A stretch of DNA of 64,000 bases, from IMG/VR virus record IMGVR_UViG_3300028805_003982; one strand, given 5' to 3'. Positions 766-60,727 of this stretch are shown here, piece after piece. The stretch comes from a virus (Duplodnaviria > Caudoviricetes). Numbering within the stretch: the stretch's first letter is position 1; every line of letters starts with the position of its first letter. A model generated the notes under the pieces. The model saw nothing but the letters and a program-made list of their open reading frames with translations. It had not been told where the DNA came from and ran no database searches. A program made the position numbers and the translations under genes.

Positions 766-1230
766 ATGACTGATTTAAATGAATTGTTTTGTGTCATTTC
801 ACAATCAAGTATGTCCGATGAAGATAAAAGAAAATCAACGGAAAAGGTATTGAGTTCTGTTAATTTGTTTATAGATTATGTGAGTCATGTCTGCAGAATG
901 GATGCTTTTATTGCTTCTGTTACAGATTATAATTCTATGACAGACGCAAAGGTCAACAGTATGGATAGAACTCGCACTCAAATTCACAACAACTGTATCC
1001 AGGCTTGCCGAGACTTAAACAAATTGTGTGCAGAGCTTAAAATAGACCCTGTTTGCAATTTCCCTCTGGAAAATCGTTACCAAGTCGCAGATTTTTGCGG
1101 GGCTGTTGTCGGTGCAATATTTTTAAAAGACAGAGATCTTGGCAGTTTTGATGAAATAATTAACAGATTTGAGTTTACAAACACCTATCTTCGTCACGTT
1201 ACAGAAAAGGATTTTAACCATGGAATGTAA
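766..1230 (+). CDS. Hypothetical protein (DUF3232-like)
   Basis: 154 aa, MDRTRTQIHN motif; RBS GAGGAG. Confidence 0.55.
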   Translation: MTDLNELFCVISQSSMSDEDKRKSTEKVLSSVNLFIDYVSHVCRMDAFIASVTDYNSMTDAKVNSMDRTRTQIHNNCIQACRDLNKLCAELKIDPVCNFPLENRYQVADFCGAVVGAIFLKDRDLGSFDEIINRFEFTNTYLRHVTEKDFNHGM

Positions 1231-1570
1231 GATTGTTGAACCTAATAAGCACATTATATATATGTTCGAATACTTCCAAATAGAAGTGTATTTACTGGAT
1301 CTTTCTAACACAAATACAACTATTCCGGTCATCAAAGTCCGATCCAACGACGAAATAGCCGGAACCTTTTCGGGTGTGCTTTACCCTGATATAATCTATA
1401 TGGAAGGTAGTGGTGAGTTTGCCATTAACACCCGAATGAGCCCTCTGTATCTTTTAGAAGAGGATTTTGAAATGAATAAGCTTGCTTTTGAAAGAAGTAT
1501 GGCTTTTGTCCGCGAAGCTAATGCTTTCTTTGCAGCACATGATTGGTTCGGAAACGAAAAGACCAAATAA
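1220..1570 (+). CDS. Hypothetical protein
   Basis: ORF; ATG at 1220 overlaps the upstream gene end. Confidence 0.6.
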   Translation: MECKIVEPNKHIIYMFEYFQIEVYLLDLSNTNTTIPVIKVRSNDEIAGTFSGVLYPDIIYMEGSGEFAINTRMSPLYLLEEDFEMNKLAFERSMAFVREANAFFAAHDWFGNEKTK

Positions 1571-1795
1571 TACCTGTCATAGATCCATCAACTATCTTTA
1601 GCCCTTTCTAACAGCCTGCTGCAAAGCAGGTTGTGCTTGCGTGCGAAAAAATCTCAAAAACGCCTCTTTTTTAATTTTTTGCTGTCATAATTAAAAATAA
1701 TGGTTTAATAGCGGTAATACTTACGGTTTAACAACGGGTATATGTTATAATGAACCTGTAAGTAACATACGTCTGTTCATTAAAGGAGGCAAAGT

Positions 1796-2668
1796 ATGAA
1801 ATTGATCAAAGCTAATAAGCACGGATTTACGTTAATGGAGATCGTTATTGTCGTTGCGATTATCGTCATCCTTACCGGTTTGGTCGGCGGACTTACTATC
1901 AGCCAAATCAAGCAGTACCGTGAATGGAATGATTATGCCAAAGAGCATTTTGGCGAGAACTGGGAGAAGGAAGCCCGTCTTCAGATCGATAATATGATGA
2001 AGAACCCCGGTGCAGGCGGCGGCAGTGGCGGAAGCGGCGGCGGTTCAGGAGAAGGCAGCCCTGAAGACCCCAGGATCGCTATAGACCAGTCTATCAGGGC
2101 AAAGTATCAGGAACTGATCGATAAGGGTGTTCCTGAATCGGATATCCACGTAACGATCGACGGTGACGGTTATTGGACAGCTATCACATGGGCATCAGAC
2201 AATCCTATTTCTGATGATCCTACGCCTGCAGACCCTACCAAGGAGCCTACCAAGCCGGCTGATCCAACAACACCACCTACAACGCCGCCTACGACTCCGC
2301 CTACGCAGACACCGACGACACCGCCTACGTCAACTCCTACTCAGGCACCCAGCAATACTGGAATTGCCCCTTCAAGTGGCGTAAGCGCCGACGGTAAGTT
2401 TAAGGTAACATCTACAGGTGCTAACAGCGTTCATCTGGTCAATGCCACCAATTCCGGTGATACAGTCGATTTCAGCATTGCCAATAACGGTGGTAAGTAT
2501 ACCCTTACGATCACCGGCGGTAACAAGTGGGTGCTCGCCAATAACTCAAACGGCATCTTTGACCGTGAAGGCATTTACTTCTGGGCATACAATACTCCTA
2601 CATTTTCAGTAGAGTTAACACCTAATCTTGTTAATTATTTCCGTAACACTTTAGGTTTTAATATCTGA
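1796..2668 (+). CDS. Type IV pilin-like protein with prepilin cleavage/methylation motif, Gly-rich and Pro/Thr-rich linkers
   Basis: KHG|FTLMEIVIVVAIIVIL class III signal; GGGSGG and PTTPPT repeats; own promoter TGTTATAAT at ~1743 and RBS AAGGAGG. Confidence 0.85.
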   Translation: MKLIKANKHGFTLMEIVIVVAIIVILTGLVGGLTISQIKQYREWNDYAKEHFGENWEKEARLQIDNMMKNPGAGGGSGGSGGGSGEGSPEDPRIAIDQSIRAKYQELIDKGVPESDIHVTIDGDGYWTAITWASDNPISDDPTPADPTKEPTKPADPTTPPTTPPTTPPTQTPTTPPTSTPTQAPSNTGIAPSSGVSADGKFKVTSTGANSVHLVNATNSGDTVDFSIANNGGKYTLTITGGNKWVLANNSNGIFDREGIYFWAYNTPTFSVELTPNLVNYFRNTLGFNI

Positions 2669-2768
2669 GCATAGCTGTTTGGCAGTTGGCATATCATCTT
2701 AACAGATAACTCATAAAAGCCCCGTCCTTAACCGGGCGGGGTTTCTTAAATAACAGGAAGGGAATAGT

Positions 2769-2975
2769 GTGGAATCCAAAATGAGTATTGTCAAACCTTA
2801 TTTGTGGCTGCCGGTTAATGACCCGCAGCTTTTCACGCCCGGCGGTGATCCGCTTTACAGATGCCCTAAGTGCGGCAAAGGCGTGCATTGTAACGGGGTC
2901 GAATTCCCGAACCGTCTTGACAGTTGTCCCGATTGCGGGGTTTCCATTGACGGTTATGCAGATGATCACGCCTGA
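2769..2975 (+). CDS. Small zinc-ribbon protein
   Basis: CPKCG and CPDCG motifs. Confidence 0.6.
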   Translation: MESKMSIVKPYLWLPVNDPQLFTPGGDPLYRCPKCGKGVHCNGVEFPNRLDSCPDCGVSIDGYADDHA

Positions 2976-3007
2976 GGTAACCGTTTGTATGAAGGAGATT
3001 TAAGAAA

Positions 3008-3301
3008 ATGGTCGTAAAAGCATTAAAGTGCGATGATGATACTCCGAACTGTACTGAGTTTGTTTATCTTCACGGAAGGTTCGAAGATGATAACGGATAT
3101 GATCTCATCTATTGTGAGCAGCTGCCCGCAAAGGACGGCATCTATGATTGCGACGTTGTGATAAACGATGTGGCGGCTCCCGGGAAACTTTTCTTCTGGA
3201 GGGTAGGGAAGACTAACAGAGGTCTTGTGGTAAGTCTTGATGATCCGGAGCATTTGAAAGATGCAAAGGCGAAGTTCGATAAAAGATCGGTTTGGCTTTG
3301 A
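3008..3301 (+). CDS. Hypothetical protein
   Basis: 97 aa ORF with RBS AAGGAG. Confidence 0.65.
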   Translation: MVVKALKCDDDTPNCTEFVYLHGRFEDDNGYDLIYCEQLPAKDGIYDCDVVINDVAAPGKLFFWRVGKTNRGLVVSLDDPEHLKDAKAKFDKRSVWL

Positions 3302-3344: not shown

Positions 3345-4688
3345 ATGTCAGGTGTTGTGAAAGCAGTTTCTAAGGCGTTTGAAGTGGAGTCGGTAAGGAA
3401 AAGGCTCCTTTATACTTTAGGCATACTGGCTCTTTTTATGTTAGGCGGACTGATCCCGGTTCCCGGTCTGGACGGAGCTAAGTTTACGGAGCTTATAAGG
3501 CAGTGGGGGCAGCTCGGGTCCATTATGGACTTTGTATCAGGCGGAGGCCTTTATCACGCAACCATCTTTGCTCTCGGAGTTTCACCCTACATCAATGCGT
3601 CTATCATAATCCAGCTTCTTCAGGTAGTGATCCCCCGGTTGGAGGAGCTTTCTAAAGAAGGGGAAGCAGGAAGGAAGACGATCACACGCATTACACGAGT
3701 ATCTGCTGTATGTCTTGCTTTTATTCAGTCCTGTTTGTTCTGCTATTCAACCAGAAGTGCAATGGTGCCTTCGCTGCCCGCATGGCTTAACGCAATGCTC
3801 GTGATCGTTTCGTTTACGGCAGGTTCCTGCCTTGTTGTCTGGTTGGGTGAGAAGATCAATGACAAGGGTATCGGAAACGGCGTATCCCTTATCATCTTCG
3901 CAGGCATCGTAACAAGACTCCCTGATATGGCAAGGAGTTTATATGTAAAATGTACCGACATCGCAGTTTCTTTCGATAACCGGGTAATAGGAACGGTACT
4001 CGGCATTTTGACTTTTATCGGGATTTCCGTTATAAGTGTCGGCATCATCGTGTTTGTTTTGTATGTTCAGTGTGCGGAAAGGCGCATTCCCGTTCAGTAT
4101 TCCAAGAAGGTCGTTGGCAGATCTCAACGGGGCGGCAATAAGGACTACATTCCTTTGAAGGTCAACCAGTCAGGTGTTATGCCCGTAATCTTTGCGATGA
4201 GCATCCTGGCAGTACCTTCCATGATCGTAATGCTGTTTTTCAAGAACAGCGAAAGTCCCGTTGCCAAGTTCTTTGCCGGGGCATTTACAGGCAGCGTATG
4301 GTACTACATAGCGTATTTCCTGTTCATCATCGGATTTACATTCTTTTATTCGTCGATACAGTTTCACCCGACGGAGATCGCCAACAATCTCGCCAAGAAC
4401 GGCGGCAGTATAAGCGGAATAAGACCCGGAAAACCCACGGCTGATTTTATTAAGAGAACGGCTTTCCGTCTTAATTGGGCTGATGCAGCCTTTTTATCTT
4501 TAGTTTGCATTGTTCCGACGGTTATCGGCATCTTAACCGGTTTTCAGAACGTCTGGTTTGCGGGAACATCTGTCCTCATTCTTACGGGTGTGGCTAACGA
4601 TATGTCTATGCAGATAGACAGTGAAGTGGAAGTAAGAAGTCCCAAGGGCTTCTTGGACAATATATTGATCAAGACAGTAAAAGCATAA
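3345..4688 (+). CDS. secY: Preprotein translocase subunit SecY
   Basis: IFALGVSPYINASIIIQLL, GIGNGVSLIIFAGI, YIPLKVNQSGVMPVIFA, GIRPGKPT motifs; multiple TM segments. Confidence 0.97.
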   Translation: MSGVVKAVSKAFEVESVRKRLLYTLGILALFMLGGLIPVPGLDGAKFTELIRQWGQLGSIMDFVSGGGLYHATIFALGVSPYINASIIIQLLQVVIPRLEELSKEGEAGRKTITRITRVSAVCLAFIQSCLFCYSTRSAMVPSLPAWLNAMLVIVSFTAGSCLVVWLGEKINDKGIGNGVSLIIFAGIVTRLPDMARSLYVKCTDIAVSFDNRVIGTVLGILTFIGISVISVGIIVFVLYVQCAERRIPVQYSKKVVGRSQRGGNKDYIPLKVNQSGVMPVIFAMSILAVPSMIVMLFFKNSESPVAKFFAGAFTGSVWYYIAYFLFIIGFTFFYSSIQFHPTEIANNLAKNGGSISGIRPGKPTADFIKRTAFRLNWADAAFLSLVCIVPTVIGILTGFQNVWFAGTSVLILTGVANDMSMQIDSEVEVRSPKGFLDNILIKTVKA

Positions 4689-4737
4689 ATGCTGTTAAGG
4701 GTTAGGAAATTACATTGCGAATGGAAAGGAAAGAACT

Positions 4738-5160
4738 ATGGGGCTTACATTGACAGCTAACAAATCTAATTATTCTTTTGATATGGGAGCCGGCGGGTTT
4801 TTTAATCTTAGAGCGAACATAGCGGATCTGTTTGACGAACAGTTCGGTGAACATTACAGAAAATTATTGAAATGCTATTACCAGAAAGATTACGAAGAGC
4901 ACGACCGTATAGCAAATGAGATTCTGTCGCACCCAAGATTTAAAGAGGAAGACGAAGACATTTTGGATTTCCTGTACGCCTCTGATTGTGATGGGAAGAT
5001 CAGTTATAAGACTTGCGGAAAGCTGTACAACCTGATAAAAGATCATGATTTCAGCAATGAATGCTTCCGCTATGCGGCATATGCGCACAACGATTACGAA
5101 GAGCTAAAGGGGTTTCTTAAAGAATGTTATTCGCACAGAAGAAACGCATATTGGAGGTAG
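4738..5160 (+). CDS. Hypothetical protein
   Basis: 140 aa ORF, FLYASDCDGKI motif. Confidence 0.7.
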   Translation: MGLTLTANKSNYSFDMGAGGFFNLRANIADLFDEQFGEHYRKLLKCYYQKDYEEHDRIANEILSHPRFKEEDEDILDFLYASDCDGKISYKTCGKLYNLIKDHDFSNECFRYAAYAHNDYEELKGFLKECYSHRRNAYWR

Positions 5161-5166
5161 GGGATT

Positions 5167-6384
5167 ATGGAAAACAAATGGATCAGAGCGGCAGTGCCTG
5201 CACTTTTGATACACTGTTCCATCGGCACGGTGTATTGCTGGAGCACTTTTAAGGAGGCTATCGCCACAGCGATAGGGATGAGCCCTTTCGCAATTGGCTG
5301 GGCGTTTTCCTTTGCGATATTCTTCCTCGGTATGTCCGCAGCCTTTGCGGGCAAGCTGGTCGAGCTGAATATCCACAAGTCGTCTCTTGTATCCGCGATC
5401 TGTTTCACGGTCGGAATGATCGGCACGGGTCTTACGATCAATTATTGCAAAGGCGTATTGGCATTGATACTTATCTATCTGTTTTACGGTTGTATTATGG
5501 GTATCGGTCTTGGCGTCGGATATTTAACGCCGGTCAAGACGCTGATGTTATGGTTTAAGGATAATAAAGGTCTTGCCACGGGTATCTCGATAATGGGGTT
5601 TGGGCTTGCCAAAGCGATCGCAACACCCGTTATGGAGCTTTTGCAGAAAAAGTGCGGAATATCTGCAATGTTTATCGTTTTAGGCGGTTGCTATTTTGTT
5701 CTGATGATGTTAGGCCATCTGCTTCTGAAAAAGCCTTCCGGCTGGGTTGAAGACAATGCAACGAACAATGAGTTCAAAGTCAGCTCCATGCTCAAAGACA
5801 AGACATTCATCGGCATCTGGCTTATCTTCTATATCAACATCCACTGCGGTCTGATGCTCATTACCTATGAAAAACAATTGCTTAACGAGAAGTTTGCAGG
5901 TCTTGCGATACTTACTGCGATAGTCAGCGTCGTGCCTTCTGTAACTGCCGTATGTAACGCCCTCGGCCGTATAGGGTATTCTACCATTTCCGATAAGATG
6001 AAAGACCGTGCGACGGTTTACGGTATCATATTCCTGTCCTGTATCCTGATCTGCTGCGCAGGCACTCTTGTCGGCAACGGTTATGTGATAATTGCGCTGC
6101 TCATGATAATCAACCTTGGCTACGGCGGCGGTTTCTCAACGCTTCCGGCTCTTCTTGAGTCGCGTTTCGGCATGAAGAACATATCAAAGATACACGGCCT
6201 CGCCCTGTCCGCGTGGGCTATCGCAGGATTGACCGGCAACAATACTTCTGAGTTGCTCTTAAAGAGCACAAACAATAATTATGGATATATCATAGCGACA
6301 GCTACGATGCTATATTCGATAGCTTGGTTCATATATTTCATGATGGTTAGGACAGGCGCGGATAGAAAGCAGGCCGGATCATGA
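5167..6384 (+). CDS. MFS transporter, oxalate/formate antiporter (OFA) family
   Basis: SIGTVYCWSTF, GIGLGVGYLTPVKTLMLWFKDNKGLATG, YGGGFSTLPALL; about 12 TM segments. Confidence 0.9.
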   Translation: MENKWIRAAVPALLIHCSIGTVYCWSTFKEAIATAIGMSPFAIGWAFSFAIFFLGMSAAFAGKLVELNIHKSSLVSAICFTVGMIGTGLTINYCKGVLALILIYLFYGCIMGIGLGVGYLTPVKTLMLWFKDNKGLATGISIMGFGLAKAIATPVMELLQKKCGISAMFIVLGGCYFVLMMLGHLLLKKPSGWVEDNATNNEFKVSSMLKDKTFIGIWLIFYINIHCGLMLITYEKQLLNEKFAGLAILTAIVSVVPSVTAVCNALGRIGYSTISDKMKDRATVYGIIFLSCILICCAGTLVGNGYVIIALLMIINLGYGGGFSTLPALLESRFGMKNISKIHGLALSAWAIAGLTGNNTSELLLKSTNNNYGYIIATATMLYSIAWFIYFMMVRTGADRKQAGS

Positions 6385-8669
6385 CGTCGCAAACGTTCTA
6401 CACTACGATCTTTTGGCTCCTCGCCTTTTTACAGGCGGGGTGTGCCTTTTTGGCGTTCCGGTCGGAAAAGTCGATAGGTAAGCACACCGGATGGCTTAAT
6501 CTCGCACTTATTGCGCCAATCGTATCCAATATCGCAATAACCGATTCACATTCTTTTGATGTGTCCCGTTTGGGGTATTATGCTTCTTACATCGGCATGA
6601 CCTGCGTCATGATCGCAGTAGTCAATTTTACCGTCAGCTACTGCCAGAAGGAGAGCGGGCTTCGGTATAAAGGCCTGATACTGATGTACGTTATCGGGGT
6701 CTTTGACATAGTGCAGATCCTGTCAGGCTTTATCTTCGACCACGTCTTTTCTATGGAAACGGTAATGCTGGACGGGCTTCCTTTCATTGCAGACGTACCT
6801 AAATACGGACTGACCATACACAGGGTCTTGTCCTATGTAATGTATTCTTATGCGTTGGTGATCCTTATCATCAACATAGCAAAGACAGCAAAGCTATACA
6901 GAGAAAAATTCGTTGTGATCCTTATAACCCTGCTGGCTGCGGGGATCGCACAGTTTATGTTTATATTTTCGAGAACACCCATAGATAAATCAGTCATATT
7001 ACACGGCATCTTTGGTTTGGTAGTCTACTATTTTTCAATCCATTATCGTCCGTTAAAGCTTCTAGACGCCGTATTGTCCACTGTAGCCTCCGACATGAAC
7101 GATGCCGTCTATGTCTTTGATGCCGACAACAAATGCGTTTGGGCAAACGATCCGGGGTATAAGCTCATCGGCGTTCCGGCGGGGAAGACCGGTCTGGTCA
7201 AAGCGGCTCTCTTTCAGATGTTCGGAGATTTTTCTGACAAAGGAAAGGCTTGGGCGGATGATATATACATTCCTTCGGTTCATGGATATTACATTCTTGA
7301 ACGTAAGGCCGTGGAGACGTCAAGGCTTCAGAACGGTTCGTTCCTTGTTATTAAGGACAGTACGGAGCGGCATAGGGCTTTGGAAAAGGAGTTGTACGCC
7401 TCAACTCACGACGGTCTTACGGGGCTTCACAATATGAGATATCTTTATCAGTGTATAGAAGATATCTTGAAAAAAGAATCTGCCGAGTATTGTGTGCTGT
7501 ATTTGAACCTGAAGAACTTTAAGATCGTAAATGATATATTCGGGAAAAAGTTCGGGGATAAGGTGCTGGTCGAATTGGCACAGTGGATCAAGACCAATCT
7601 TACTGATGAAAGGATCTTGTACGGAAGGCTTATAGGCGATACTTTCGGTATCTTTATGCCGATTGAACTTTTTAATGAAGACATGTTTTTAAAGGATCTG
7701 GCGAATTTTTCCGTCGATAATCAGGTTCATCATCAGATCTGCATCCATACCGGCGTCTATTTCATATCAGACCCCACTGTCGAAGTGTCGGTATTGTTTG
7801 ACCGGGCACATCTTGCCTTAAACAACATAACGGGTAACTATAAGACATATGTGGCTTATTATAATGATGAGCTGCGCAGGTCCCTTATAGAAGAACAGCA
7901 GCTGGTCTCTGACCTCAACGAAGCATTGGCCAATGATCAGATAAAGGCTTATCTGCAGCCCATAGCAGATGTCAACGGCGTTGTAGTCGGCGCAGAGGCC
8001 CTGGCGCGGTGGGAGCATCCTTCATTGGGGTTCTTGTCGCCGTCTAAGTTTATACCCATGTTTGAGAAAAACGGCATGATAATCGAAGTCGACAAGCATA
8101 TCTGGGAATATGTATGTAAGATCCTCAGGCGGTGGAAAGGGGTATACGACAACCTTTTTATATCTTTCAATGTATCGCCTAAGGATTTTTATTACATAGA
8201 TGTCGTAGACGTCATTAAAGGACTCGTCGCAAGATATGAGATAGATCCCGCCAAGCTCAGGATCGAGATCACGGAAACTGCCATGATGTCTGATCCCGAA
8301 GAGAAGATCAAGATCTTTAATGCTCTGAGAAATGCCGGATTCGTGGTTGAAATGGACGATTTCGGCAGCGGATATTCCTCTCTTAATCTCTTAAAGGATA
8401 TGCCGGTCGATGTCTTAAAGATAGATATGGCGTTTCTGTCGTCGGAAGAAAATGACAAATCGGAAACCATTATCCGCAACGTGCTGAACTTATCCAATGA
8501 TCTTAAGATAACCGCTTTGACCGAAGGTGTTGAGACTAAGCAGCAGTATGCCCAATTAGTCGATCTCGGGTGTTCCTTGTTCCAGGGATATTACTTTGCC
8601 AAACCGATGTCAGCAGAAGATTTTGATAAGTTTATAGAAGCTAGGTCATCCGATCCCGGGTCCAAGTAA
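6381..8669 (+). CDS. 7TM-PAS-GGDEF(degenerate)-EAL c-di-GMP phosphodiesterase
   Basis: N-terminal TM helices; HDGLTGLHN; GGDEF replaced by IGDTF; intact EAL, EITE, DDFGSGYSS, KID, EGVE, QGY motifs. Confidence 0.9.
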   Translation: MTSQTFYTTIFWLLAFLQAGCAFLAFRSEKSIGKHTGWLNLALIAPIVSNIAITDSHSFDVSRLGYYASYIGMTCVMIAVVNFTVSYCQKESGLRYKGLILMYVIGVFDIVQILSGFIFDHVFSMETVMLDGLPFIADVPKYGLTIHRVLSYVMYSYALVILIINIAKTAKLYREKFVVILITLLAAGIAQFMFIFSRTPIDKSVILHGIFGLVVYYFSIHYRPLKLLDAVLSTVASDMNDAVYVFDADNKCVWANDPGYKLIGVPAGKTGLVKAALFQMFGDFSDKGKAWADDIYIPSVHGYYILERKAVETSRLQNGSFLVIKDSTERHRALEKELYASTHDGLTGLHNMRYLYQCIEDILKKESAEYCVLYLNLKNFKIVNDIFGKKFGDKVLVELAQWIKTNLTDERILYGRLIGDTFGIFMPIELFNEDMFLKDLANFSVDNQVHHQICIHTGVYFISDPTVEVSVLFDRAHLALNNITGNYKTYVAYYNDELRRSLIEEQQLVSDLNEALANDQIKAYLQPIADVNGVVVGAEALARWEHPSLGFLSPSKFIPMFEKNGMIIEVDKHIWEYVCKILRRWKGVYDNLFISFNVSPKDFYYIDVVDVIKGLVARYEIDPAKLRIEITETAMMSDPEEKIKIFNALRNAGFVVEMDDFGSGYSSLNLLKDMPVDVLKIDMAFLSSEENDKSETIIRNVLNLSNDLKITALTEGVETKQQYAQLVDLGCSLFQGYYFAKPMSAEDFDKFIEARSSDPGSK

Positions 8670-10023: not shown

Positions 10024-10773
10024 ATGTCTGATGTAAATGGCGAGAGTTTTAAGGCTCAGATATCTGAAAAGTTTAACGTAGTACCTTCGGCAAATATTGC
10101 CGGGCGCTATGTTATTGTGTACAGACAGACAGGAGCCGTTGCAGACGACGCTGACGGACACGGCTATACTTCTCCTGCAGCTGCTTGGAAAAGTCTTTAT
10201 CATAAGGTCAATGAGCATGAAATCACTTTAACCGATACCAAAAGTCCCGACGCTTTTCGTCTTGAGCGTATCAGTAATTATAAAGAGCACAAGAAAGCTG
10301 TTGATCAGGAAGCAAAACATAATATAAACAAACAGTTCAGGACTCTGATGCCCAGGATCGAAAGGGCTTTGGTGACTTTGGATGCCGCGATTACTGCAGG
10401 GGTTGTTTCTGCAAACCGGTATTATGCCAGAAGTGTAGGAAACTATTCTACTATTCATTTTATACCTTCTAACGGTGATGCGGGAGCTTTTCTCGTTATG
10501 ACTAATACTTCTATGACGCAGTCTCTGGAAAGCGATATTCCGTGCGGTGTGAGTGTCGATGCTAAAGGGGCCAAGTTTGTTTCTTTTGATCATACTACGG
10601 GTGAAAGAGCCGTTTTAAAAAATCTGCACGTCTGCGTAGCACAGCGTTGTACGAATGCTTTTATGAAGGTATACGACGAGTGGGAGAAAACAGTTTTATC
10701 TGAAATAGATGCCGAATTGGACAGAGTCTACGGTAAATCAAGTGAAACCGGCCCGGAAGGGACCTCATTATAA
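10024..10773 (+). CDS. Hypothetical protein
   Basis: 249 aa ORF in tightly packed operon. Confidence 0.75.
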   Translation: MSDVNGESFKAQISEKFNVVPSANIAGRYVIVYRQTGAVADDADGHGYTSPAAAWKSLYHKVNEHEITLTDTKSPDAFRLERISNYKEHKKAVDQEAKHNINKQFRTLMPRIERALVTLDAAITAGVVSANRYYARSVGNYSTIHFIPSNGDAGAFLVMTNTSMTQSLESDIPCGVSVDAKGAKFVSFDHTTGERAVLKNLHVCVAQRCTNAFMKVYDEWEKTVLSEIDAELDRVYGKSSETGPEGTSL

Positions 10774-11391: not shown

Positions 11392-11823
11392 ATGGATAGA
11401 AACGAAGCTTACAGCAGGTTCTGCAAAGAGGAAAAGAAGAATAAGGAAGACCTTGTTACTTCCTTTAACAACAGAGCTGCAGAGACAGTTGATTTTTGCA
11501 GTATGCTTTTAGACATTGAGAGTAGAGGCTACGACGTCAGACCCATTATTCCCAAGTTTGAGATCAATGTATATAACATACCTGGCAGGGAAGGAAACAC
11601 TGCTTTCATTACGTATATCAAGAATCCTGAGAATGCTCAGGTCGAGCGTTTCGCTTGGAATTCGGATGAAATGCGCTTTTATAAGCCTCAGCAGGACGAT
11701 AAGGTCCTGTCTGCCAAGACGATCGAAGATTTTATCACAGAATTTGACGGCTTTAAGGCAGTATGTCTTCGCGGTATTGATCAGATCATCGGTTACGATG
11801 ACCGTCCCGCACACGGCATGTAA
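11392..11823 (+). CDS. Hypothetical protein
   Basis: 143 aa, RBS AAGGAGG. Confidence 0.75.
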   Translation: MDRNEAYSRFCKEEKKNKEDLVTSFNNRAAETVDFCSMLLDIESRGYDVRPIIPKFEINVYNIPGREGNTAFITYIKNPENAQVERFAWNSDEMRFYKPQQDDKVLSAKTIEDFITEFDGFKAVCLRGIDQIIGYDDRPAHGM

Positions 11824-12099: not shown

Positions 12100-12534
12100 A
12101 TGGATAATGGTTTTGAGAACAAGTATAAGCTTTTGAACGCTTCTGCGGTCCGCGGTGTGGTCGAGGGGCTTTGCAAAGAAGCCGGGATCAGTGAAGATGC
12201 TATGAAAAAGCTTTTAAACACGATAGACGAGATGCCCGACATGTCAGTTATGAATGTGGGTAAGGGAAGGCTCAGGTTATATGCGTTAAACGACGCAGAT
12301 GAAAAAGAGTGCGGCATTGTATATGAAAACGCTAACGGCGATATTGCCGATCTTTTCTATGTCAAAGGTCGTACGGACCCTGAAGACCTTGTGTTTAAGC
12401 ATGAGCCTGACAGCGCGGATATGAGATGTTATGTGTATTCAGATCCTCTGACCGAGGATTACTCAGAGGATTTTAATATGAGCTCTGCCGATTTTGAAAA
12501 GGGCTTTGGAAATGATCATATAGAAGGACTTTAA
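12100..12534 (+). CDS. Hypothetical protein
   Basis: 144 aa, RBS GAGGAG. Confidence 0.75.
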   Translation: MDNGFENKYKLLNASAVRGVVEGLCKEAGISEDAMKKLLNTIDEMPDMSVMNVGKGRLRLYALNDADEKECGIVYENANGDIADLFYVKGRTDPEDLVFKHEPDSADMRCYVYSDPLTEDYSEDFNMSSADFEKGFGNDHIEGL

Positions 12535-12869: not shown

Positions 12870-13199
12870 ATGGACAGAGTTTATGATTTTACTTTGACTA
12901 AAGTCGGCGAAGATCTTTACTCTTTGGATTGCAACAGCCTTAAAATGCCTGACGGTTCTTTAAAGTTGCTTCACAATGAAGTTGCGGTTGATTTTAAAGT
13001 AACCGAAGACGGGTTTCAGATACTTTCCGGATGGCACATAGGTACAGAGGATTTTGATTTTGAAGAAGGCGATTCCTGGGATGATTATGTAGAATATTAT
13101 CACCCCGGAATAACTGAGCAGGTAAGATCTGAAATGAAAAGAATGGAAGAGTGCGGAGTGGATTGTAATAGAAAGACAAATGACGGACAGAGTCTTTGA
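12870..13199 (+). CDS. Hypothetical protein
   Basis: 109 aa, RBS AAGGAG. Confidence 0.7.
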   Translation: MDRVYDFTLTKVGEDLYSLDCNSLKMPDGSLKLLHNEVAVDFKVTEDGFQILSGWHIGTEDFDFEEGDSWDDYVEYYHPGITEQVRSEMKRMEECGVDCNRKTNDGQSL

Positions 13200-13213
13200 A
13201 GGAGGGATTTAAT

Positions 13214-14317
13214 ATGGGTCAATTCTCATGGCTTGATTGTTGTGATCATCGGCAGCAGATCTTAGACGGATTTGCAAAGACTTCATATCTTTTGGTGCCT
13301 CAGGAGTTCCAGGATGAATACGGTTCCAGTATTGAAGAATCCTGTTATGACGGGTACGGCATCTTTGGAAAATATGATGTCTATGACCTTGTTGCCGACT
13401 GGAATAAAAAGTACATCAATCTGGATAATTTTACCAGTAAGGGCCTTGATATAGGCTCTCCCGAAAGCTATGGCGGACTCTGGCCTTTTGAAAAAGAAAA
13501 GCTTGTTAAATCGGGTTTATCACCTGAAGAGATAGCGAATTTAGATAAAGAGGCAAAACAGATGCACTACGACGCCGCTAAACAGCGTGCGGAACATGAT
13601 CTGAAGCAGATCAAAGATTTCTGCGAAGGCAAGCCTGATTCATATATGAGGAAAACATACGGCGATGATTACAAGCGTCTTATTGGCATTACGCTTGCCT
13701 GCTGGGACGAGGATAATTTCAAGCTTAAATATCCCATTAAGATAACATATTATTCAGGTGCGATCTACGAAAACTGCGGGCCGTCTCCTTCAGACCCCAA
13801 TCAGGGTTGGTTTGACGCTGACAGGCAGATAAAACCGATAGTTGCAGAGTGGCTTGGCCGTCAGGAAGACGCGCTGATCGAGGCGATGGACGATCTGGAC
13901 GCTGACGATGCTTCGTTCGAGAATGTGGATTGCGAGGATCTTCTGGTCTGGATAGGTGAGCATCCCCGCCTTTGTAAGAGTATGATGAATTACTTGGATT
14001 TTGACGTTCGCTCCTGGATCTGGGAGATAACCGGAGATTACGACTTCGGTGATTACGGAAGATATAAGATCACGAATCTTTCATGGCAGCAGGGCGGCAA
14101 ACAGCACGCGTTGACCTTGATCGCTGAAGGTCCGTCAGAGATCATACTTCCTGAGAGATTTAATTATCTTGTCGAAGGTACATCCTGTGGTGATATGGAC
14201 GACTTGTACGACCGTATCAGTGAATATGTGCATAGCAAAACGGGGATGTCTTGTGACAAGTCTTTTAAGATTGAGGGTTTTGATATCAATAATGGCCCTG
14301 ACAGACCTTCTTTATAA
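13214..14317 (+). CDS. Hypothetical protein (MGQFSW N-terminus)
   Basis: ORF with RBS GGAGGG; YDGYGIFGKYDVYDLVADWN. Confidence 0.8.
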   Translation: MGQFSWLDCCDHRQQILDGFAKTSYLLVPQEFQDEYGSSIEESCYDGYGIFGKYDVYDLVADWNKKYINLDNFTSKGLDIGSPESYGGLWPFEKEKLVKSGLSPEEIANLDKEAKQMHYDAAKQRAEHDLKQIKDFCEGKPDSYMRKTYGDDYKRLIGITLACWDEDNFKLKYPIKITYYSGAIYENCGPSPSDPNQGWFDADRQIKPIVAEWLGRQEDALIEAMDDLDADDASFENVDCEDLLVWIGEHPRLCKSMMNYLDFDVRSWIWEITGDYDFGDYGRYKITNLSWQQGGKQHALTLIAEGPSEIILPERFNYLVEGTSCGDMDDLYDRISEYVHSKTGMSCDKSFKIEGFDINNGPDRPSL

Positions 14318-14859: not shown

Positions 14860-15855
14860 ATGACTGAGTCTCAGATTAATGAAACCCGCCTCATTTTGGC
14901 GGCCGTTGAACGGGGGTGCCCTAACCCTATGCTGATAGGGTATGGCGGCAGCATTGCCTATGGAACGTCTACTGATACTTCGGACGTTGATATACGCGGG
15001 ATCTATGTTAATCCGATAGAAGAATTTATTGGTCTTTATCCTGATTCAGAACAGTTCATGCTTCAGGAATACGATGTTACCATATATAGCCTTAAGAAAA
15101 TGATGAAGCTCCTGGCAGACTGTAATCCCAATACGATAGAGCTGTTAGGTCTTAAGCCTGACCAGTATCTGTTTATAAGCGGAGCAGGTAAGCACCTTCT
15201 TGATCATTCGGATCTGTTCCTTTCTAAGAAGGCCGGATATACATTCGGCTGTTATGCACGTTCTCAGCTTAACAGATTAATGAATAAATCCGGACGGGCC
15301 GTTTCTGCCGTCGTCTCCAACGAAGCACGGTCTCTTACCAACGCGTTAGCGTCGCTTAAACAGAAGGAAGGCATAGAGGGGGTTACGGTCAATACAGATG
15401 ACAAGAACGGCGTTGTACTGACTATTAACGGGTCTTTTTCTATAGATAAGGCCACCCGTTTATTCGGAGAGATAAACAACATCCATTCGGATTACAAAAA
15501 GAGTCATCGCAACGATAAGGCTGTTGCGCACAACAAGATCGGTAAGCACATGATGCATCTTGTCAGGCTGTATCTGATGGGCATCGACATCCTTAAAGAC
15601 CACAAGATCGTTACTTATCGTCCTGAGCATGACCTTTTGATGGATATAAGAAACGGCAGATACTTTGAATCAGACGGAGTCACACCAAACGCGGCATTTA
15701 ACCGTCTGGTATCAGATCTGTCAAAACAGTTCGATGACGCTTGGAAAAACTCAACTCTTCCCGAGTATCCGGATAATGATAAGCTTAATGCGCTTATGAT
15801 GAATTGTGTATGCGAAAGTTTAGGTATTGAAATAAATGAACTCGATCTCTTCTGA
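14860..15855 (+). CDS. Pol-beta superfamily nucleotidyltransferase (RlaP/YcgL-like)
   Basis: GGSIAYGTSTDTSDVDIRGIY, LADCNPNTIELL, KHMMHLVRLY. Confidence 0.85.
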   Translation: MTESQINETRLILAAVERGCPNPMLIGYGGSIAYGTSTDTSDVDIRGIYVNPIEEFIGLYPDSEQFMLQEYDVTIYSLKKMMKLLADCNPNTIELLGLKPDQYLFISGAGKHLLDHSDLFLSKKAGYTFGCYARSQLNRLMNKSGRAVSAVVSNEARSLTNALASLKQKEGIEGVTVNTDDKNGVVLTINGSFSIDKATRLFGEINNIHSDYKKSHRNDKAVAHNKIGKHMMHLVRLYLMGIDILKDHKIVTYRPEHDLLMDIRNGRYFESDGVTPNAAFNRLVSDLSKQFDDAWKNSTLPEYPDNDKLNALMMNCVCESLGIEINELDLF

Positions 15856-46448: not shown

Positions 46449-46757
46449 ATGTATTGCAAGCAATTCCAAGATATCATCGATTGCATAGGCATTGATGAAC
46501 CCTTTTATGTCATAAACGGAATGTATGAAGCACGTCTTATGGAAACCCGTGAAGGTGATATCCGCCTTGACATGTATGTCGTACTTGAGAAGCAACAAAA
46601 TGAAGTCATATCACGCGTAGTCAACCCATCTGATACATGTGATCTTGATATTGAACCTATGAAGAAAACGCAAAGACGGAGTTATTTCAATCAGTGGAAG
46701 CATCCGAATGAAAGACATGGCTTTTCTGAAGATACTTCTTCAAATATTTCTTTATAA
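46449..46757 (+). CDS. Hypothetical protein
   Basis: 102 aa, RBS AAGGAG. Confidence 0.6.
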   Translation: MYCKQFQDIIDCIGIDEPFYVINGMYEARLMETREGDIRLDMYVVLEKQQNEVISRVVNPSDTCDLDIEPMKKTQRRSYFNQWKHPNERHGFSEDTSSNISL

Positions 46758-50614: not shown

Positions 50615-51334
50615 ATGGACGATAAATACTTATACACAGGTAATTGGTACAAAACAGAAGACGGCAAGATCCTTCACATTGCTCAGGATGACTGCCCTCA
50701 AAACCCCCGTGAATGGGACGGGTGGCTTGGTAAGATTTTTTCCGTTTCCCGTTACGTGACAGGTGAAACCGATAAGGAAGGCCTTAAGTGCTGGGACGAT
50801 CTGTTACAGAAATACGGGGTAGAACAGAGCGGTACTGATATGCAGAAGGATTTTCCCGTTGACTGCAGAAATCTCATAGAAGCAGCAAAAGAGAAGGGAG
50901 ACGTTCTCCTTCCTATGTCCATATATGACCACAGCGGAATAACCCTTTATGTCGGTCTTCCCAGCGACCATTTTGACGGGCGTTGGGATTGTTCGTTTGT
51001 AGGTTTCATGATCGCGGACGGCAAGGATCTTGCTGAGCGTAAGCTTTCTTACGATGACGCTGTACAGATTCTTGAAGGCGAAGTAGCCATCTTGGACTGC
51101 TATTATACCGGTTCCGTTTACGGATATATTCTTTATGACGCGGAGTCCTTAGATGAGATCGATTCCTGCTGGGGCTTTTTCGGCAGCGAGATCAAGTCTT
51201 TTGAAGAGAGTGTTGGTCTGAAGATAACAGAAAATCTCGGCAGCGGCTATTCCGACGTCAACGAGTGTTTCGAGAGCAACAGGGAGTCCTTTGAGGAAGA
51301 AGCGAATCTTCGTAATATCAGGGGGTTTGAGTAA
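50615..51334 (+). CDS. Hypothetical protein
   Basis: NPREWD, YDHSGITL, WD..VGF, DSCWGFFG motifs, which I recognise from mobile-element proteins. Confidence 0.75.
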   Translation: MDDKYLYTGNWYKTEDGKILHIAQDDCPQNPREWDGWLGKIFSVSRYVTGETDKEGLKCWDDLLQKYGVEQSGTDMQKDFPVDCRNLIEAAKEKGDVLLPMSIYDHSGITLYVGLPSDHFDGRWDCSFVGFMIADGKDLAERKLSYDDAVQILEGEVAILDCYYTGSVYGYILYDAESLDEIDSCWGFFGSEIKSFEESVGLKITENLGSGYSDVNECFESNRESFEEEANLRNIRGFE

Positions 51335-51963
51335 TGGACGTGATCGACGGCAGATTTGAACCAGTTAAGCGTACTGCCGTGGACGGAAAGACCTGGTGGG
51401 TAGTATATGACAATAAAAGGCATGGTTACAGCTCTTACATTTGCCATGGTAAGTACGAAACCAGGAAACAGTGCGAGCAGGCGATAAAAGCGTCGTATAA
51501 GTATTTTTGCGGTGTCTCCGGGGAAGCCGGCAGATCTGTAGAAAGGAGAGAAAAAATGACAAACTATAATGACCTGAGAGACGGTCAAGAGTTCTATGCT
51601 AATGGTTACAAGAAAGGCTACGAGGACGCAAAGAAAGAGTTTGAAAGTAAGATTATTACAAAGGCTATCAGCGAAGAATTAGAAGCATTACCCAAAGAAA
51701 TTGATGGTGATAAGTTATTGATGCTATCAACGTTTGGGGCAGGAGTTAGATTTAATATCCTTGGTAAATTAAAAGAAAGTAAGAAAGATGACATGTCTCC
51801 TGATGTGATAAGCAAGATCTTAGCAGATTTCATATTGGATGACATTGAGAACGCCGATGAGGATTTTGTTAAAGAAAAGTTTGAAACCTTAGGGGTTACA
51901 CAGGAATTGTTAGATACGTTAGGCGTCGATTACCGCCTGGAAGGGGAAAAACCTAGTCTTTAA
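51334..51963 (+). CDS. Hypothetical two-module protein
   Basis: 209 aa; possible internal start at 51556. Confidence 0.65.
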   Translation: MDVIDGRFEPVKRTAVDGKTWWVVYDNKRHGYSSYICHGKYETRKQCEQAIKASYKYFCGVSGEAGRSVERREKMTNYNDLRDGQEFYANGYKKGYEDAKKEFESKIITKAISEELEALPKEIDGDKLLMLSTFGAGVRFNILGKLKESKKDDMSPDVISKILADFILDDIENADEDFVKEKFETLGVTQELLDTLGVDYRLEGEKPSL

Positions 51964-51978: not shown

Positions 51979-52761
51979 ATGGGGGATAATATGAGCAATC
52001 AAAAATATGTTGCGATACTCTGTAAGAGCAGTGAAAACGACGAAAGCATTGTCCTTGTTTCTTCTGATGAGCTGTTGGAGGTCATTCAAAATCCCGGCAG
52101 CTACAGATACAGTCCATCTAACGGGATAATGTACGGGGATGAAGAGATCAATAAATGCTTTAATCTTAATAAGATCAAAGATTTTGTCCTCATTGATTCT
52201 AACAGTCTTCCGGGCAAGTCCTCCGGATGGCCTAACGTAGTCCCGTCCTGGGCTAAGGTTTCCACTAAGATCAACAATCCTCAGTATATTAAGCTGGATT
52301 CTTTGGCTCCTTACGTCGAGATAGTTGCCATGGACCCGATAGAATTTGACATCAAGTCAATGGAATCGGTTAAGAAGGCAGCCAAACAGGTTATCGATAA
52401 CATTGCTGCTTTAGAGGATACTTGTTCGGAGATTTGTTATAAGTACGATCCTTACGACAACATAGACCCGAATGAATTAAGACGGATCTTATTCGATGAT
52501 ATTGTTCTTGTATCAAACCCCAGATTTGTTCCCATGCAGATAACATCCGAAGACGGATCTTTCTGGTGGCAGATCTACGATGCCAAGAACAGGGAGTTTA
52601 ATCATCTCGGGGGCACCAAGCACTATCCAACAAAAGAAAAATGTCAGGCGGCTATTGATTATTCTCAGGCACACGGGCTCCTGGCAACTGTTGATAAAGA
52701 CATATTTACCTGGGCTCCGAAACAGCCGGAAGAAGTAGATGAACCGGGACACGATCTGTGA
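51979..52761 (+). CDS. Hypothetical protein
   Basis: 260 aa ORF. Confidence 0.7.
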   Translation: MGDNMSNQKYVAILCKSSENDESIVLVSSDELLEVIQNPGSYRYSPSNGIMYGDEEINKCFNLNKIKDFVLIDSNSLPGKSSGWPNVVPSWAKVSTKINNPQYIKLDSLAPYVEIVAMDPIEFDIKSMESVKKAAKQVIDNIAALEDTCSEICYKYDPYDNIDPNELRRILFDDIVLVSNPRFVPMQITSEDGSFWWQIYDAKNREFNHLGGTKHYPTKEKCQAAIDYSQAHGLLATVDKDIFTWAPKQPEEVDEPGHDL

Positions 52762-52789
52762 TCATAATAAAAGTAAAGGAGATAATATT

Positions 52790-53485
52790 ATGTACGTTTC
52801 TCAGAATAATCAGAAGTTATACTTAAATCATTGGGGATTTAATGCCTGCAGGCTTATGAGTATGTTGGCTACAGTCATCGAAGCTGCCGGCGGAGTGGTT
52901 GATTACAGATATCAGAAGACAGCGCTTGTCTGCGACAGGACCGTTTATGATAAAGCTCGTGAAAAGCTGGATATGTTAGATCACTTTAAGCAGGTTCTTG
53001 ATAAGAATCCTGAAATGAAAGATCAGATCCAGCCTAAGCTCGAAGTGCTTGAAAAGGAAGCTGAAGAGCTTGCAGGAACACCTGAAGTGTTTGTTCCTTG
53101 TGAGTTCCAGACGCATCTTAAATTCATGATCAACGACACTTTATATTATTATCAGGTTGACGACAATCCTTTTATGGAGTTCTATTATCAGAAGACTCCG
53201 ATCGTTAATGGAAGATACAGTAAAGATGCTTGTCTTATGGAAGCTTCAAAGCTCTGGTACGATGATTCCTTCTTAAAGGGCGGAGTTTCAGATGCAGATA
53301 TCAAGAAGGCAGCTGAAACGCTTGCGGGCGCATTGTTCAATGCACCCGAGTCTGAGATCATCCGCAGCAAGAAAACGATCAGCGTGCCCAACGCACATAA
53401 TAACGGGCATCACAAGGAAGTTGTTTTTGAGCCTGAACGTTTTTCCACGGAGCTGCCGCAGGGAAGAGAGACGCCGTCTTTGTAA
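52790..53485 (+). CDS. Hypothetical protein
   Basis: ATG at 52790 after AAAGGAG. Confidence 0.7.
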   Translation: MYVSQNNQKLYLNHWGFNACRLMSMLATVIEAAGGVVDYRYQKTALVCDRTVYDKAREKLDMLDHFKQVLDKNPEMKDQIQPKLEVLEKEAEELAGTPEVFVPCEFQTHLKFMINDTLYYYQVDDNPFMEFYYQKTPIVNGRYSKDACLMEASKLWYDDSFLKGGVSDADIKKAAETLAGALFNAPESEIIRSKKTISVPNAHNNGHHKEVVFEPERFSTELPQGRETPSL

Positions 53486-59017: not shown

Positions 59018-59726
59018 AAAGATGTTAACAAAAGCTGAGTTTGACTTTTATCTCGCTAAGTTAGCTACCCTCCTTAAGAAAGAATACGGCAAAGGCTTTG
59101 AAGGCGAACTAATTGTTGTGGGCGGTGCGGCGATTTTGGCAAACTATCATTTTCGGACTATGTCCGCGGATATAGATGCCATTATTCGGGCAAATGCAAG
59201 AATAAAAGATGCCATAAACAAAATAAGCGATGTGTATGATTTGCCTAGCGATTGGCTTAACTCGGATTTTGTGAAAACAACATCGTTTTCGGGAAAATTG
59301 GCAGAAGTATCTCGATATTATCGTTCATTCTGTAATGGTGTGTTAACAGTCCGAACGGTTAATGCTGAATACTTAATCGCGATGAAATTAAGGTCTTTTC
59401 GACCCTATAAAAAGGATCTTTCTGACATCGTAGGCATTATTGGTGAACATGACAAAGAAGGTAACAGCATAACAATTGAGAGTATTATAAAAGCATACAA
59501 ATACTTATATGACGCCGAGTTGCCAGACAAAGCTCTCTTGTTTTTACAATCCGTGTTTGATAATAATGATATTTTGGGGTTATATCAAAACATAAGTGAA
59601 CAAGAACGAAAAGATAAAATAAAGTTAATCGATTTTGAGAATAAATATCCCGGAGTTCTATCAGAAGACAACTTAGAAGATATTTTGCAAAATCTTAATA
59701 ATCATAATTCGGGCATTGCCGATTAA
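59007..59726 (+). CDS. DUF6036/AbiEii-like nucleotidyltransferase (putative toxin)
   Basis: IVVGGAAI...R.MSADID, WLNSDF, YLIAMKL.S.R..KDLSDI. Confidence 0.75.
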   Translation: MSAKKMLTKAEFDFYLAKLATLLKKEYGKGFEGELIVVGGAAILANYHFRTMSADIDAIIRANARIKDAINKISDVYDLPSDWLNSDFVKTTSFSGKLAEVSRYYRSFCNGVLTVRTVNAEYLIAMKLRSFRPYKKDLSDIVGIIGEHDKEGNSITIESIIKAYKYLYDAELPDKALLFLQSVFDNNDILGLYQNISEQERKDKIKLIDFENKYPGVLSEDNLEDILQNLNNHNSGIAD

Positions 59727-59748
59727 TACATTTTCTCTCTAATTATGT

Positions 59749-59824
59749 GCCCGATTGGCGCAATTGGCAGAGCAACGGTATCGTAAACCGTAGGTTGCGG
59801 GTTCAAATCCCACATCCGGCTCCA
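59749..59824 (+). tRNA. tRNA-Thr(CGT)
   Basis: Cloverleaf with acceptor mismatch, CCA. Confidence 0.75.
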
Positions 59825-59882
59825 CTACCTCAACGGGGCGTCGGTTTTCTTTTAGAGGTCTATACTATAACCGTTATAATAA

Positions 59883-59959
59883 CTCTCGGTGGCGGAATTG
59901 GCATACGCAGCGGACTTAAAATCTGTAAGTTACGGGTTTGACTCCCGTTCGAGAGACCA
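59883..59959 (+). tRNA. tRNA-Leu(TAA), short variable loop
   Basis: Leu D arm, loop CTTAAAA, A-CCA. Confidence 0.8.
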
Positions 59960-59992
59960 AAAATATACAAAATGTCTATGAAAGGAGTTCTT

Positions 59993-60727
59993 ATGAAGGT
60001 TTTGGTAATTCCTGATGTACACTTAAAACCTGTCATGTTTGACAGAGCAGATCAGCTTTTTAAAAGTGAGAATATCGATCGCTGCGTCTGTCTGATGGAT
60101 ATCCCGGATGACTGGAATAAGCAGTTTAATATATCTTTGTATGAGGAAACTTTCAAAGCCGCCATAAAGTTCCAGAAAGACCATCCGGATACTCTCTGGT
60201 GCTGGGGAAATCATGATCTCAGTTATGTTTGGGGGATGTCCGAATCGGGCTATTCCAAGGTTGCAGAATACACTGTCCGTAAATATATCGACAAGCTTCT
60301 CGATATTGTACCCGATGATCAGATAGAGTACATCCATCGTATAGACGATGTTTTGTTCATGCACGGGGGTTTATCAGCGCTCTTTGTTAAGACTCATCTG
60401 GAAGATCTGGGTCTTTATGACGATGTAGATACCATCATAAGCTGGATCAACAGTCTCGGCCCCGAATACATGTGGACAAACGCTTCTCCTATCTGGTATC
60501 GGCCTCAGCTGGACTTTCGAGCTTTATATAAGCAGGATACTCTTTTACAGGTAGTAGGGCACACTCCTGTCAGGAAAGTAAATACCGACACCGTAAGAAA
60601 CTTTATTTCCTGCGATGTGTTTTCCACGGAAAGCAACGGAACCCGGTATGGGGAAGAGAAGTTCCCGGTAATAGACACCAAAAGGAAGAGTTTGTGCAAT
60701 CTGCACGAAATGGAAAGGAATTTATAA
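59993..60727 (+). CDS. Calcineurin-like metallophosphoesterase
   Basis: DVH, MDIPD, GNHD, HGG, GHT motifs. Confidence 0.88.
   Translation: MKVLVIPDVHLKPVMFDRADQLFKSENIDRCVCLMDIPDDWNKQFNISLYEETFKAAIKFQKDHPDTLWCWGNHDLSYVWGMSESGYSKVAEYTVRKYIDKLLDIVPDDQIEYIHRIDDVLFMHGGLSALFVKTHLEDLGLYDDVDTIISWINSLGPEYMWTNASPIWYRPQLDFRALYKQDTLLQVVGHTPVRKVNTDTVRNFISCDVFSTESNGTRYGEEKFPVIDTKRKSLCNLHEMERNL

Follow-up and report, generated by a model that had tools for sequence, protein, structure and literature searches.

The window analysed here is the whole 64,000-nucleotide stretch of IMG/VR record IMGVR_UViG_3300028805_003982, in which a mobile genetic element encodes dozens of proteins ending in a short polar tail that is closed by leucine. 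Nearly all genes of the window lie on the plus strand, and its G+C content is ~44%. The first 8.7 kb constitute a host-like block encoding the C-terminal part of HsdR, a pilin-like protein, SecY, an MFS transporter and a 7TM-GGDEF-EAL protein. The mobile element begins at 8.7 kb with genes for DUF5688 and RlaP proteins, a CCA-adding enzyme, a guanylate-kinase-like protein, two sigma-70 factors and SSB, which binds single-stranded DNA, and continues with PcfJ-like, NrdD/NrdG, TnpB, TraX, metallophosphoesterase, PARG-like and tyrosine recombinase genes; 43 tRNA genes lie in the window, and dozens of the element's open reading frames (ORFs) match no Pfam or PHROG family. The element's contig extends to 234,910 bp (ENA ERZ27256871), and its precomputed gene table adds, further downstream, SNF2, an Mrr-like nuclease, a DUF3991-Toprim primase, ArdC-MPTase, and HipA-like and zeta-toxin-like proteins. 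No capsid or terminase gene was seen. Genes associated with conjugation (PcfJ, TraX, DUF5688, ArdC and a TraC-like primase) are found in the window and its relatives; a Mob_Pre relaxase and a VirD4-like gene are present in distant relatives, the VirD4-like protein of one of these, L006, having almost no relatives of its own in a homology search. The element is read, on its sequence, as a tRNA-rich giant conjugative element of putative gut-type Firmicutes.

The initial annotation of this DNA had called attention to the tails, and all 22 of those that it quoted do lie at the gene ends to which it assigned them. Its count of terminal Leu on 15 of 26 consecutive ORFs between 8.7 and 26.5 kb was reproduced on recount (15 of 26, 8.7-26.6 kb; p = 2.7e-10), and the wider bias toward L/M/V/F that it reported is real, at 20 of 26 (15 L, 2 M, 2 F, 1 V) instead of the 21 that it gave. 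Over the entire element part of the window (8.7-64 kb), 29 of 72 ORFs end in Leu, compared with an internal Leu frequency of 8.5% (binomial p = 2.6e-13). The corresponding control counts are 1 of 11 in the host-like block (1-8.7 kb), 17 of 111 (15%) for spurious minus-strand ORFs and 2 of 24 for off-frame plus-strand ORFs. The bias extends to three related giant elements from other metagenomes, represented by the DNA flanking homologues of P0001, a tagged 651-residue protein of the window: Leu ends 14 of 29 proteins in L002 (with 9 more ending in I/M/V), 10 of 34 in L003 and 21 of 32 in L005. Pooling the window with these three elements yields 73 of 168 proteins ending in L (p = 3e-35) and 101 of 168 ending in L/M/I/V. 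Leu-enders make up 71 of the 151 soluble proteins of the pool as against 2 of the 17 with a predicted transmembrane segment (Fisher p = 0.008); the tail is carried by ~40% of the element's soluble proteins.

The preceding residues are also constrained, as position preferences computed among the 73 pooled Leu-enders show. G/S/N/D/E occupy position -2 in 82% of cases (background 33%, p = 4e-18), with Lys, Arg and hydrophobic residues avoided; P/H occupy position -3 in 31% (background 5%, p = 3e-12), D/E position -5 in 37% (background 15%) and G/S position -6 in 36% (background 12%). Hydrophobic residues fall to 12% over positions -6 to -2, compared with 36% in the background (p = 5e-24), and the hydrophobic-free run ahead of the last residue has a median length of 4 residues versus 1 for internal Leu. 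The motif is [G/S]-[D/E]-x-[P/H/R/S]-[G/S/N/D/E]-Leu-COOH, borne on a linker without hydrophobic residues. It is not a sliding-clamp binding motif of the QL[S/D]LF or QLxLxL type, which is ruled out by the scarcity of hydrophobic residues at -6 to -2 and the lack of any preference for Gln. Ends in which [G/S]L is followed by 1-5 further residues ('capped' tags) occur on 11 of 95 proteins not ending in L, where 6.2% is expected (p = 0.03); this enrichment is too marginal to serve as evidence and was dropped.

The tagged genes of the window are all on the plus strand, and most of their products are orphans: 20 tagged orphans match no PHROG, and most match no Pfam family. The first is an ORF for 154 residues with a weak DUF3232 match, ending ...NHGM (766..1230). 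In the first part of the element come ...EGTSL (10024..10773; the L002 orthologue ends ...GHSL and that of L005 ...DGLK), ...AHGM (11392..11823), ...IEGL (12100..12534; L005 orthologue ...PNAL), ...GQSL (12870..13199) and the 373-residue ...DRPSL protein (13196..14317; L002 orthologue ...GLDL). These are followed by the CCA-adding enzyme homologue, whose ...TNNL end lies 16 residues past the last Pfam domain (15836..17230), and by a run of further orphans: ...REGL, with the Shine-Dalgarno site of the next gene inside the tail (17839..18483), ...KPEL (18485..18955), ...RSGL (18969..19457) and ...TFNL (20099..20578). P0001 itself, with its DnaQ/RNase T-like N-terminal domain and ...DHSGL end (20596..22551), precedes ...RKSL (22585..23016) and ...GIGM (23034..23378), the latter with no adjacent gene but a T-rich, terminator-like stretch behind it. 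Next are the guanylate-kinase-like protein, ...DRGL (23467..24318; L002 orthologue ...GHSI), and two sigma-70 family factors, one ending ...SRKL 24 residues past region 4 (24170..25126), the other ending ...GSNL on a 62-residue, Gly-rich extension past region 4 (25145..26164). The start of the first sigma factor is more likely ATG 24320, which comes directly behind the stop codon upstream and is preceded at 7 nt by AGGGGG, than TTG 24170; the protein would then have 268 residues. The tagged genes in the rest of the window are the small ORF ...DVNL (30571..30870), the orphans ...SSDL (32739..33362), ...LPGL (34231..34794), ...FRNL (39046..39480) and ...DKAL (39523..39876), the small ORF ...NISL (46449..46757), the orphans ...KPSL (51334..51963), ...GHDL (51979..52761) and ...TPSL (52739..53485; L002 orthologue ...APDL), and the metallophosphoesterase, ...ERNL (59972..60727). 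Across the window and the related elements, tags are also found on RNase T-like, Mrr-like nuclease, acetyltransferase, NT5C-like, DUF3846 and HD proteins and on most orphans.

The tail had been reported absent from SecY, the MFS transporter, the EAL protein, TnpB and the recombinase, and each of these absences holds: SecY, a small ORF, the MFS transporter and the 7TM-GGDEF-EAL protein (3345..8669), the TnpB of an IS605-type insertion (43429..44733), whose L002 homologue is likewise untagged, and the tyrosine recombinase (61654..62724), all plus-strand, end without it. SSB (26579..27019, plus strand) keeps its own acidic-hydrophobic C-terminal tip. TraX, TnpA, recombinases, RlaP, PcfJ, DUF5688, PARG and, in L005, the DNA polymerase III delta subunit are also untagged. 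NrdD (34900..37101, plus strand) ends in Leu by what is counted as coincidence, because its Pfam domain runs to the last residue.

Where a conserved domain can be delimited, the tail lies outside it, as had been proposed for the host-like enzymes. RpoD homology and Pfam region 4 stop at residue 277 of 339 in the sigma factor encoded at 25145-26164; the last conserved residue is 294 of 318 in the sigma factor ending at 25126 and 448 of 464 in the CCA-adding enzyme. The extensions thus measure 62, 24 and 16 residues, to which ArdC adds examples of 25-35 acidic residues when set against its distant homologues. In an AlphaFold2 model of P0001 (36-sequence alignment, mean pLDDT 77) the last helix ends at residue 635, and residues 636-651 are coil, with pLDDT <50 at the very end. 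The tail is an addition beyond folded domains, and it sits on soluble proteins. As to the rest of P0001, its family (55 clusters) matches no Pfam or PHROG entry and is widespread in Firmicute conjugative elements. A DEDD-type exonuclease motif lies in the N-terminal ~270 residues, for which modelling gives a DnaQ/RNase T/TREX-like fold that includes a long helical insertion; in Foldseek their matches to such folds are weak.

The signal resides in the peptide. The 73 terminal Leu codons divide into 37 TTR and 36 CTN, with all six Leu codons in use; Ser at -2 is encoded by TCN in 10 cases and by AGY in 4, and Gly and Pro use all of their codons. Third codon positions are free, and no nucleotide position is informative beyond what the amino acids demand. 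The bias toward Leu ends is independent of how far away the next gene lies, the rate being 42% where the genes overlap, 50% at 0-12 nt, 57% at 13-30 nt, 38% at 31-100 nt and 34% beyond 100 nt. The Shine-Dalgarno site is normally located after the stop codon of the tagged gene. Because the codon families are mixed, the third positions free and the distance to the next gene without influence, the tail is selected as peptide and not as DNA. The initial annotation had allowed that terminal L/M might fall to background frequency once overlap with ribosome-binding sites was modelled; this was tested, and the tag survives. Its central proposal of an element-wide tag on unrelated proteins stands, for soluble proteins and at the level of the peptide, on the pooled counts, the codon analysis and the depletion among membrane proteins.

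Comparison between elements shows the tag being maintained while the residues that carry it change. Homologues of P0001 were found in metagenomes only. The four closest, P0002-P0005, share 42-58% identity with it, lie on contigs of 13-215 kb and without exception have [G/S/D]-Leu ends, on tails that vary in length and sequence; among the more distant homologues, 3 of 49 end in Leu. Related contigs range from 129 to 389 kb, among them a 215-kb contig that carries P0004 and, in the ArdC cluster, contigs of 227-389 kb. A quick tree of the conserved part of the family places the six [G/S/D]-Leu enders in one clade (SH-aLRT 99). The tail arose once, in a clade of giant conjugative elements whose nearest relatives are without the tag. 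Orthologues in the four elements, at 26-49% identity, keep a terminal L/I/M on linkers that cannot be aligned. In blastp comparisons between elements, tagged families stay tagged even though the alignments end before the tail (...TPSL/...APDL, ...DRPSL/...GLDL, ...DRGL/...GHSI, ...IEGL/...PNAL), and untagged families stay untagged, as with TnpB and a 98-residue protein encoded at 12547-12843. A few orthologues end in the tag plus one or two extra residues (...DGLK, ...GLQY), which are read as decayed tags. The tagged 651-residue P0001 and an 8-kb stretch of DNA have no relatives among INPHARED phages or PLSDB plasmids (one 77-nt DNA match is at chance level), a search of IMG/VR with the P0001 family found nothing, and the GTDB species genomes yielded a single, distant 3.6-kb match; collections of plasmids, phages and species genomes lack the element family. 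Queried against JGI metagenomes, the ArdC of the window's element had no match above 35% identity.

ArdC provides a view of what preceded the tag. L008 continues L003 and shares synteny with the contig of the window; it encodes a DUF3991-Toprim primase ending ...RRGL and an ArdC-MPTase ending ...VPSL; the ArdC of the window's own contig (P0065) ends ...GHSL. The five closest ArdC homologues, P0065 among them, have an acidic extension of 25-35 residues, four of them ending in [G/S]-Leu and the fifth in -Ala-Ile, and in a variant 98% identical to the L008 protein the ...PSL end has become ...SGL. The 115 more distant ArdC proteins (P0067-P0181, from diverse metagenomes) end differently: 6 in Leu, 61 in Ala and 43 in -Ala-Ala, with Ala-ending tails such as ...EAA, ...KAA, ...VAA and ...LAA. 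On ArdC, the Leu tag replaced another terminal signal, one with the shape of a ClpX-type degron. We have encountered no description of an -Ala-Ala, ssrA/ClpX-type degron-shaped end in the ArdC anti-restriction family. The ArdC block of L008 ends (L008:16249-17910) at a minus-strand integrase gene adjoining a SepF gene; the L008 relative may be chromosomally integrated, with the integrase/SepF site as its right end.

The Leu tail is probably an undescribed label, of address or of turnover. On this view it is a portable short linear motif of the C terminus, in which a disordered linker that is devoid of hydrophobic residues, and often acidic or rich in Gly, Ser or Pro, presents the final Leu (less often Met, Ile or Val) behind a small or acidic residue at -2. 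The strictness of the last residue, the small or acidic -2 position and the flexible linker suggest a single cytoplasmic reader that would bind the side chain of Leu and the free alpha-carboxylate at once and handle a large cohort of proteins alike. As uses of the tag, the initial annotation had offered co-transfer, packaging or timed proteolysis. The explanation that we rank first, tentatively and with a degradation tag close behind, is that the tail recruits proteins to the conjugation machine. The reader would belong to that machine, as a VirD4-type coupling protein or as an adaptor or unfoldase working with one, and tagged proteins (ArdC, the TraC-like primase, nucleases, sigma factors, tRNA-repair and nucleotide enzymes, the orphans) would be co-transferred with the DNA and could be active in the recipient ahead of expression of the element's own genes; the two tagged sigma factors would let the element's promoters fire on arrival.

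Several considerations place recruitment to the conjugation machine first. The tail's single origin in one clade and its absence from the nearest relatives fit a private, co-evolving reader, and the tag is missing from the independently mobile TnpB and from the host-like cargo. Markers of conjugation are present in the element family. The tagged ArdC and TraC-like primase have a precedent for transfer, ArdC and TraC1 being the textbook proteins said to travel with DNA (PMC5512222). F-type type IV secretion systems (T4SS) move many plasmid proteins, and docking by a tail, of TraD on TraM, is already part of coupling (PMC8406263); Dot/Icm signals are polar or acidic C-termini that include hydrophobic residues (PMC9302130). 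A more far-reaching version, which we regard as speculative and rather improbable, is that in a clade of giant elements (>200 kb, with their own sigma factors and ~43 tRNAs) the Leu-COOH tail serves as a private label loading ~100 proteins into the mating channel. The recipient would be supplied with a pre-made establishment proteome that would include sigma factors, tRNA-repair enzymes and anti-defence proteins, much as phages package proteins.

Several points weigh against recruitment to the conjugation machine. The cargo would amount to 40-65% of the genes in some operons, which is far above any known conjugative system. SSB and the integrase are untagged although they would be useful in the recipient, and the distant ArdC proteins, mostly ending in -Ala-Ala, point to turnover and not to export as the role of the ArdC tail. 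No reader was found in the window, which encodes no PDZ, TPR or other C-terminus-binding domain, and, to our knowledge, no T4SS signal is tied to a single last residue.

The next explanation, possible but on balance doubtful, makes the tail a C-degron that is read by an AAA+ protease (the host's ClpXP, ClpCP, Lon or FtsH, or an unfoldase of the element's own), so that establishment, anti-defence and regulatory proteins, both sigma factors among them, would be present as a pulse and then cleared. The architecture is that of ssrA-type tags, with a disordered linker, an apolar last residue and a free carboxylate; ArdC bears a ClpX-like tail elsewhere in its family, where the Leu tail stands here; and stable housekeeping and structural proteins (NrdD, SSB, the DNA polymerase III delta subunit of L005, membrane proteins, the integrase) go untagged. 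The sequence itself is the difficulty. The dipeptide is [G/S/N/D/E]-L, with apolar residues depleted at -6 to -2, in place of a terminal ...L-A-A, and none of the bacterial degrons characterised so far has [G/S/N/D/E]-Leu behind an acidic linker. Since the ClpXP of Firmicutes recognises ...LAA, a degron intended for the host would be expected to end in Ala-Ala. The single origin of the tail and its absence from the nearest relatives are easier to reconcile with a private reader that co-evolves than with a conserved protease of the host, and destabilising about half of a very large proteome would be costly.

That the tail docks its bearers on some other hub (a scaffold, a replication-transcription factory or RNA polymerase), as a mirror image of the SSB tip with many tails converging on one partner, is unlikely. 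It gains something from the general shape of the SSB tip, an acidic stretch, Pro, a terminal hydrophobic residue and a free carboxylate, and from the fact that sigma factors, nucleases, primase and nucleotide and tRNA enzymes would profit from co-localisation. Against it, no candidate hub was found, the window being without PDZ, TPR or similar domains, and dozens of orphans with unrelated folds are hard to explain as sharing one partner.

It is highly improbable that the tail is a by-product of nucleotide constraints at gene ends (Shine-Dalgarno site and spacer, stop context, termination efficiency) and functionless as a peptide: this reading could draw on the over-use of TTA as terminal Leu codon (38% versus 18% internally), on the Shine-Dalgarno site inside one tail of the window (17839-18483) and on a distant relative, L007, that has exactly such tails ('KGEER'), but both codon families of Leu and of Ser are used with free third positions, the Shine-Dalgarno site mostly lies 3' of the stop codon, the rate of Leu ends does not change when the next gene lies >100 nt away or is lacking, the added linkers span 16-62 residues, and tag status is kept family by family. 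L007 (4983-20681; ENA ERZ12302851, a 105.7-kb contig) shows what such a by-product looks like. Eleven of its 22 genes end in Arg, mostly as ...KGEER, with near-invariant codons, AAA GGA GAA GAA AGA TGA, which constitute the Shine-Dalgarno site and spacer of the downstream gene. In all 11 cases, where the next start is known, the gene end falls between a 4-nt overlap with that start and 9 nt upstream of it. The notion that the -ER tails of distant relatives represent a second, lineage-specific tag was withdrawn for L007, where they are translated Shine-Dalgarno site and spacer, and is doubtful for L006. Translationally coupled junctions with an internal Shine-Dalgarno site thus also generate recurrent C-terminal peptides, as in L007; the Leu tail differs from these in its diverse codons and in the 34% of Leu ends that persist at gaps >100 nt, and is excluded from their company. 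It follows that recurrent C-terminal peptides on mobile elements may be translated ribosome-binding sites, and that a codon-level check is needed for each case.

Some features of the window stand apart from the tail. All five tRNA-Leu genes (anticodons CAG, AAG, CAA and two TAA; 55437-55909, 57715-57791, 59883-59959) are 77-78 nt long with a variable region of ~5 nt, and so take the class-I shape, lacking the long variable arm that the tRNA-Ser and tRNA-Tyr genes retain; a tRNA-Ile(TAT) gene is also present. A tie between these unusual tRNA-Leu genes and the terminal Leu was entertained and dropped: all six Leu codons end genes, and several positions define the tail. The stop codon TAG is nearly unused in these elements (4 of 168 genes, none of them a Leu-ender). 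The SecY homologue at 3345-4688, which is full-length (Pfam E = 2e-102), is located within the element or at its edge and adjoins a pilin-like gene with an N-terminal methylation motif (1796-2668).

If recruitment to the conjugation machine is the function, and the tail is accordingly an address label, then sequence alone would define the proteins that a Gram-positive conjugative element handles together, by way of a portable tag of five residues; we know of no transfer signal or cargo list for Gram-positive conjugative elements of this kind. If the tail is a degron, a mobile element is able to set how long half of its proteins persist. In both cases, dozens of orphan proteins without a Pfam or PHROG family acquire a first assigned property. 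No description of an element-wide, Leu-ending tail on the proteins of conjugative elements was found in full-text searches of the literature.

Judged by its sequence, the Leu tail would work in the manner of known C-terminal recognition signals; it displays the defining sequence features of none of them. The C-terminal signals of T4SS substrates are likewise unstructured and are borne by many unrelated soluble proteins of a conjugation-type machine. The Dot/Icm 'E-block' signals are read by DotM, and the VirB/VirD4 signals of Agrobacterium VirF and VirE2 are Arg-rich. T4SS signals are a matter of loose composition over ~20 residues with no fixed last residue, whereas the Leu tail is determined mainly by its last residue, avoids Lys, Arg and hydrophobic residues at -2 and marks a much larger share of genes. 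Also comparable are the tail of F-plasmid TraD, which docks on TraM, and the SSB tip, each a disordered C-terminal tail that docks a partner, as is proposed here. In the SSB tip and in TraD, an acidic tail places its last hydrophobic residue and free carboxylate in a pocket of the partner. There, however, one tailed protein meets one or several partners, whereas here dozens of tailed proteins would presumably meet one; SSB, moreover, ends in ...IPF and the Leu tail in ...[G/S/N/D/E]-L. The contact of TraD with TraM belongs to the coupling of conjugative substrates (PMC8406263).

The ssrA degrons (...LAA-COOH, read by ClpXP, ClpAP and FtsH) have in common with the Leu tail an exposed C-terminal peptide with an apolar last residue and a free carboxylate. 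They differ in their A-A end and in being added by tmRNA or present on a few regulators, whereas the Leu tail is encoded on ~40% of the element's genes. The peroxisomal PTS1 signal (S/A/C-K/R/H-L/M-COOH) and PDZ ligands are also very short and portable between unrelated proteins, and are defined by Leu or Met as last residue, its free carboxylate and a small residue before it. The analogy is one of logic only: both are eukaryotic, the -2 position of the Leu tail is small or acidic and not basic, and the window encodes neither a Pex5-like TPR protein nor a PDZ reader. The polyvalent proteins of conjugative elements and phages, for which entry into the recipient along with the DNA has been proposed (Iyer et al. 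2017, PMC5512222), comprise the same repertoire of domains as the element described here (ArdC-N with MPTase, SNF2, Toprim primase, nucleases). In polyvalent proteins these activities are parts of a single, fused giant polypeptide that bears a 'header' domain; in the present element they are encoded by separate genes that share a tail.

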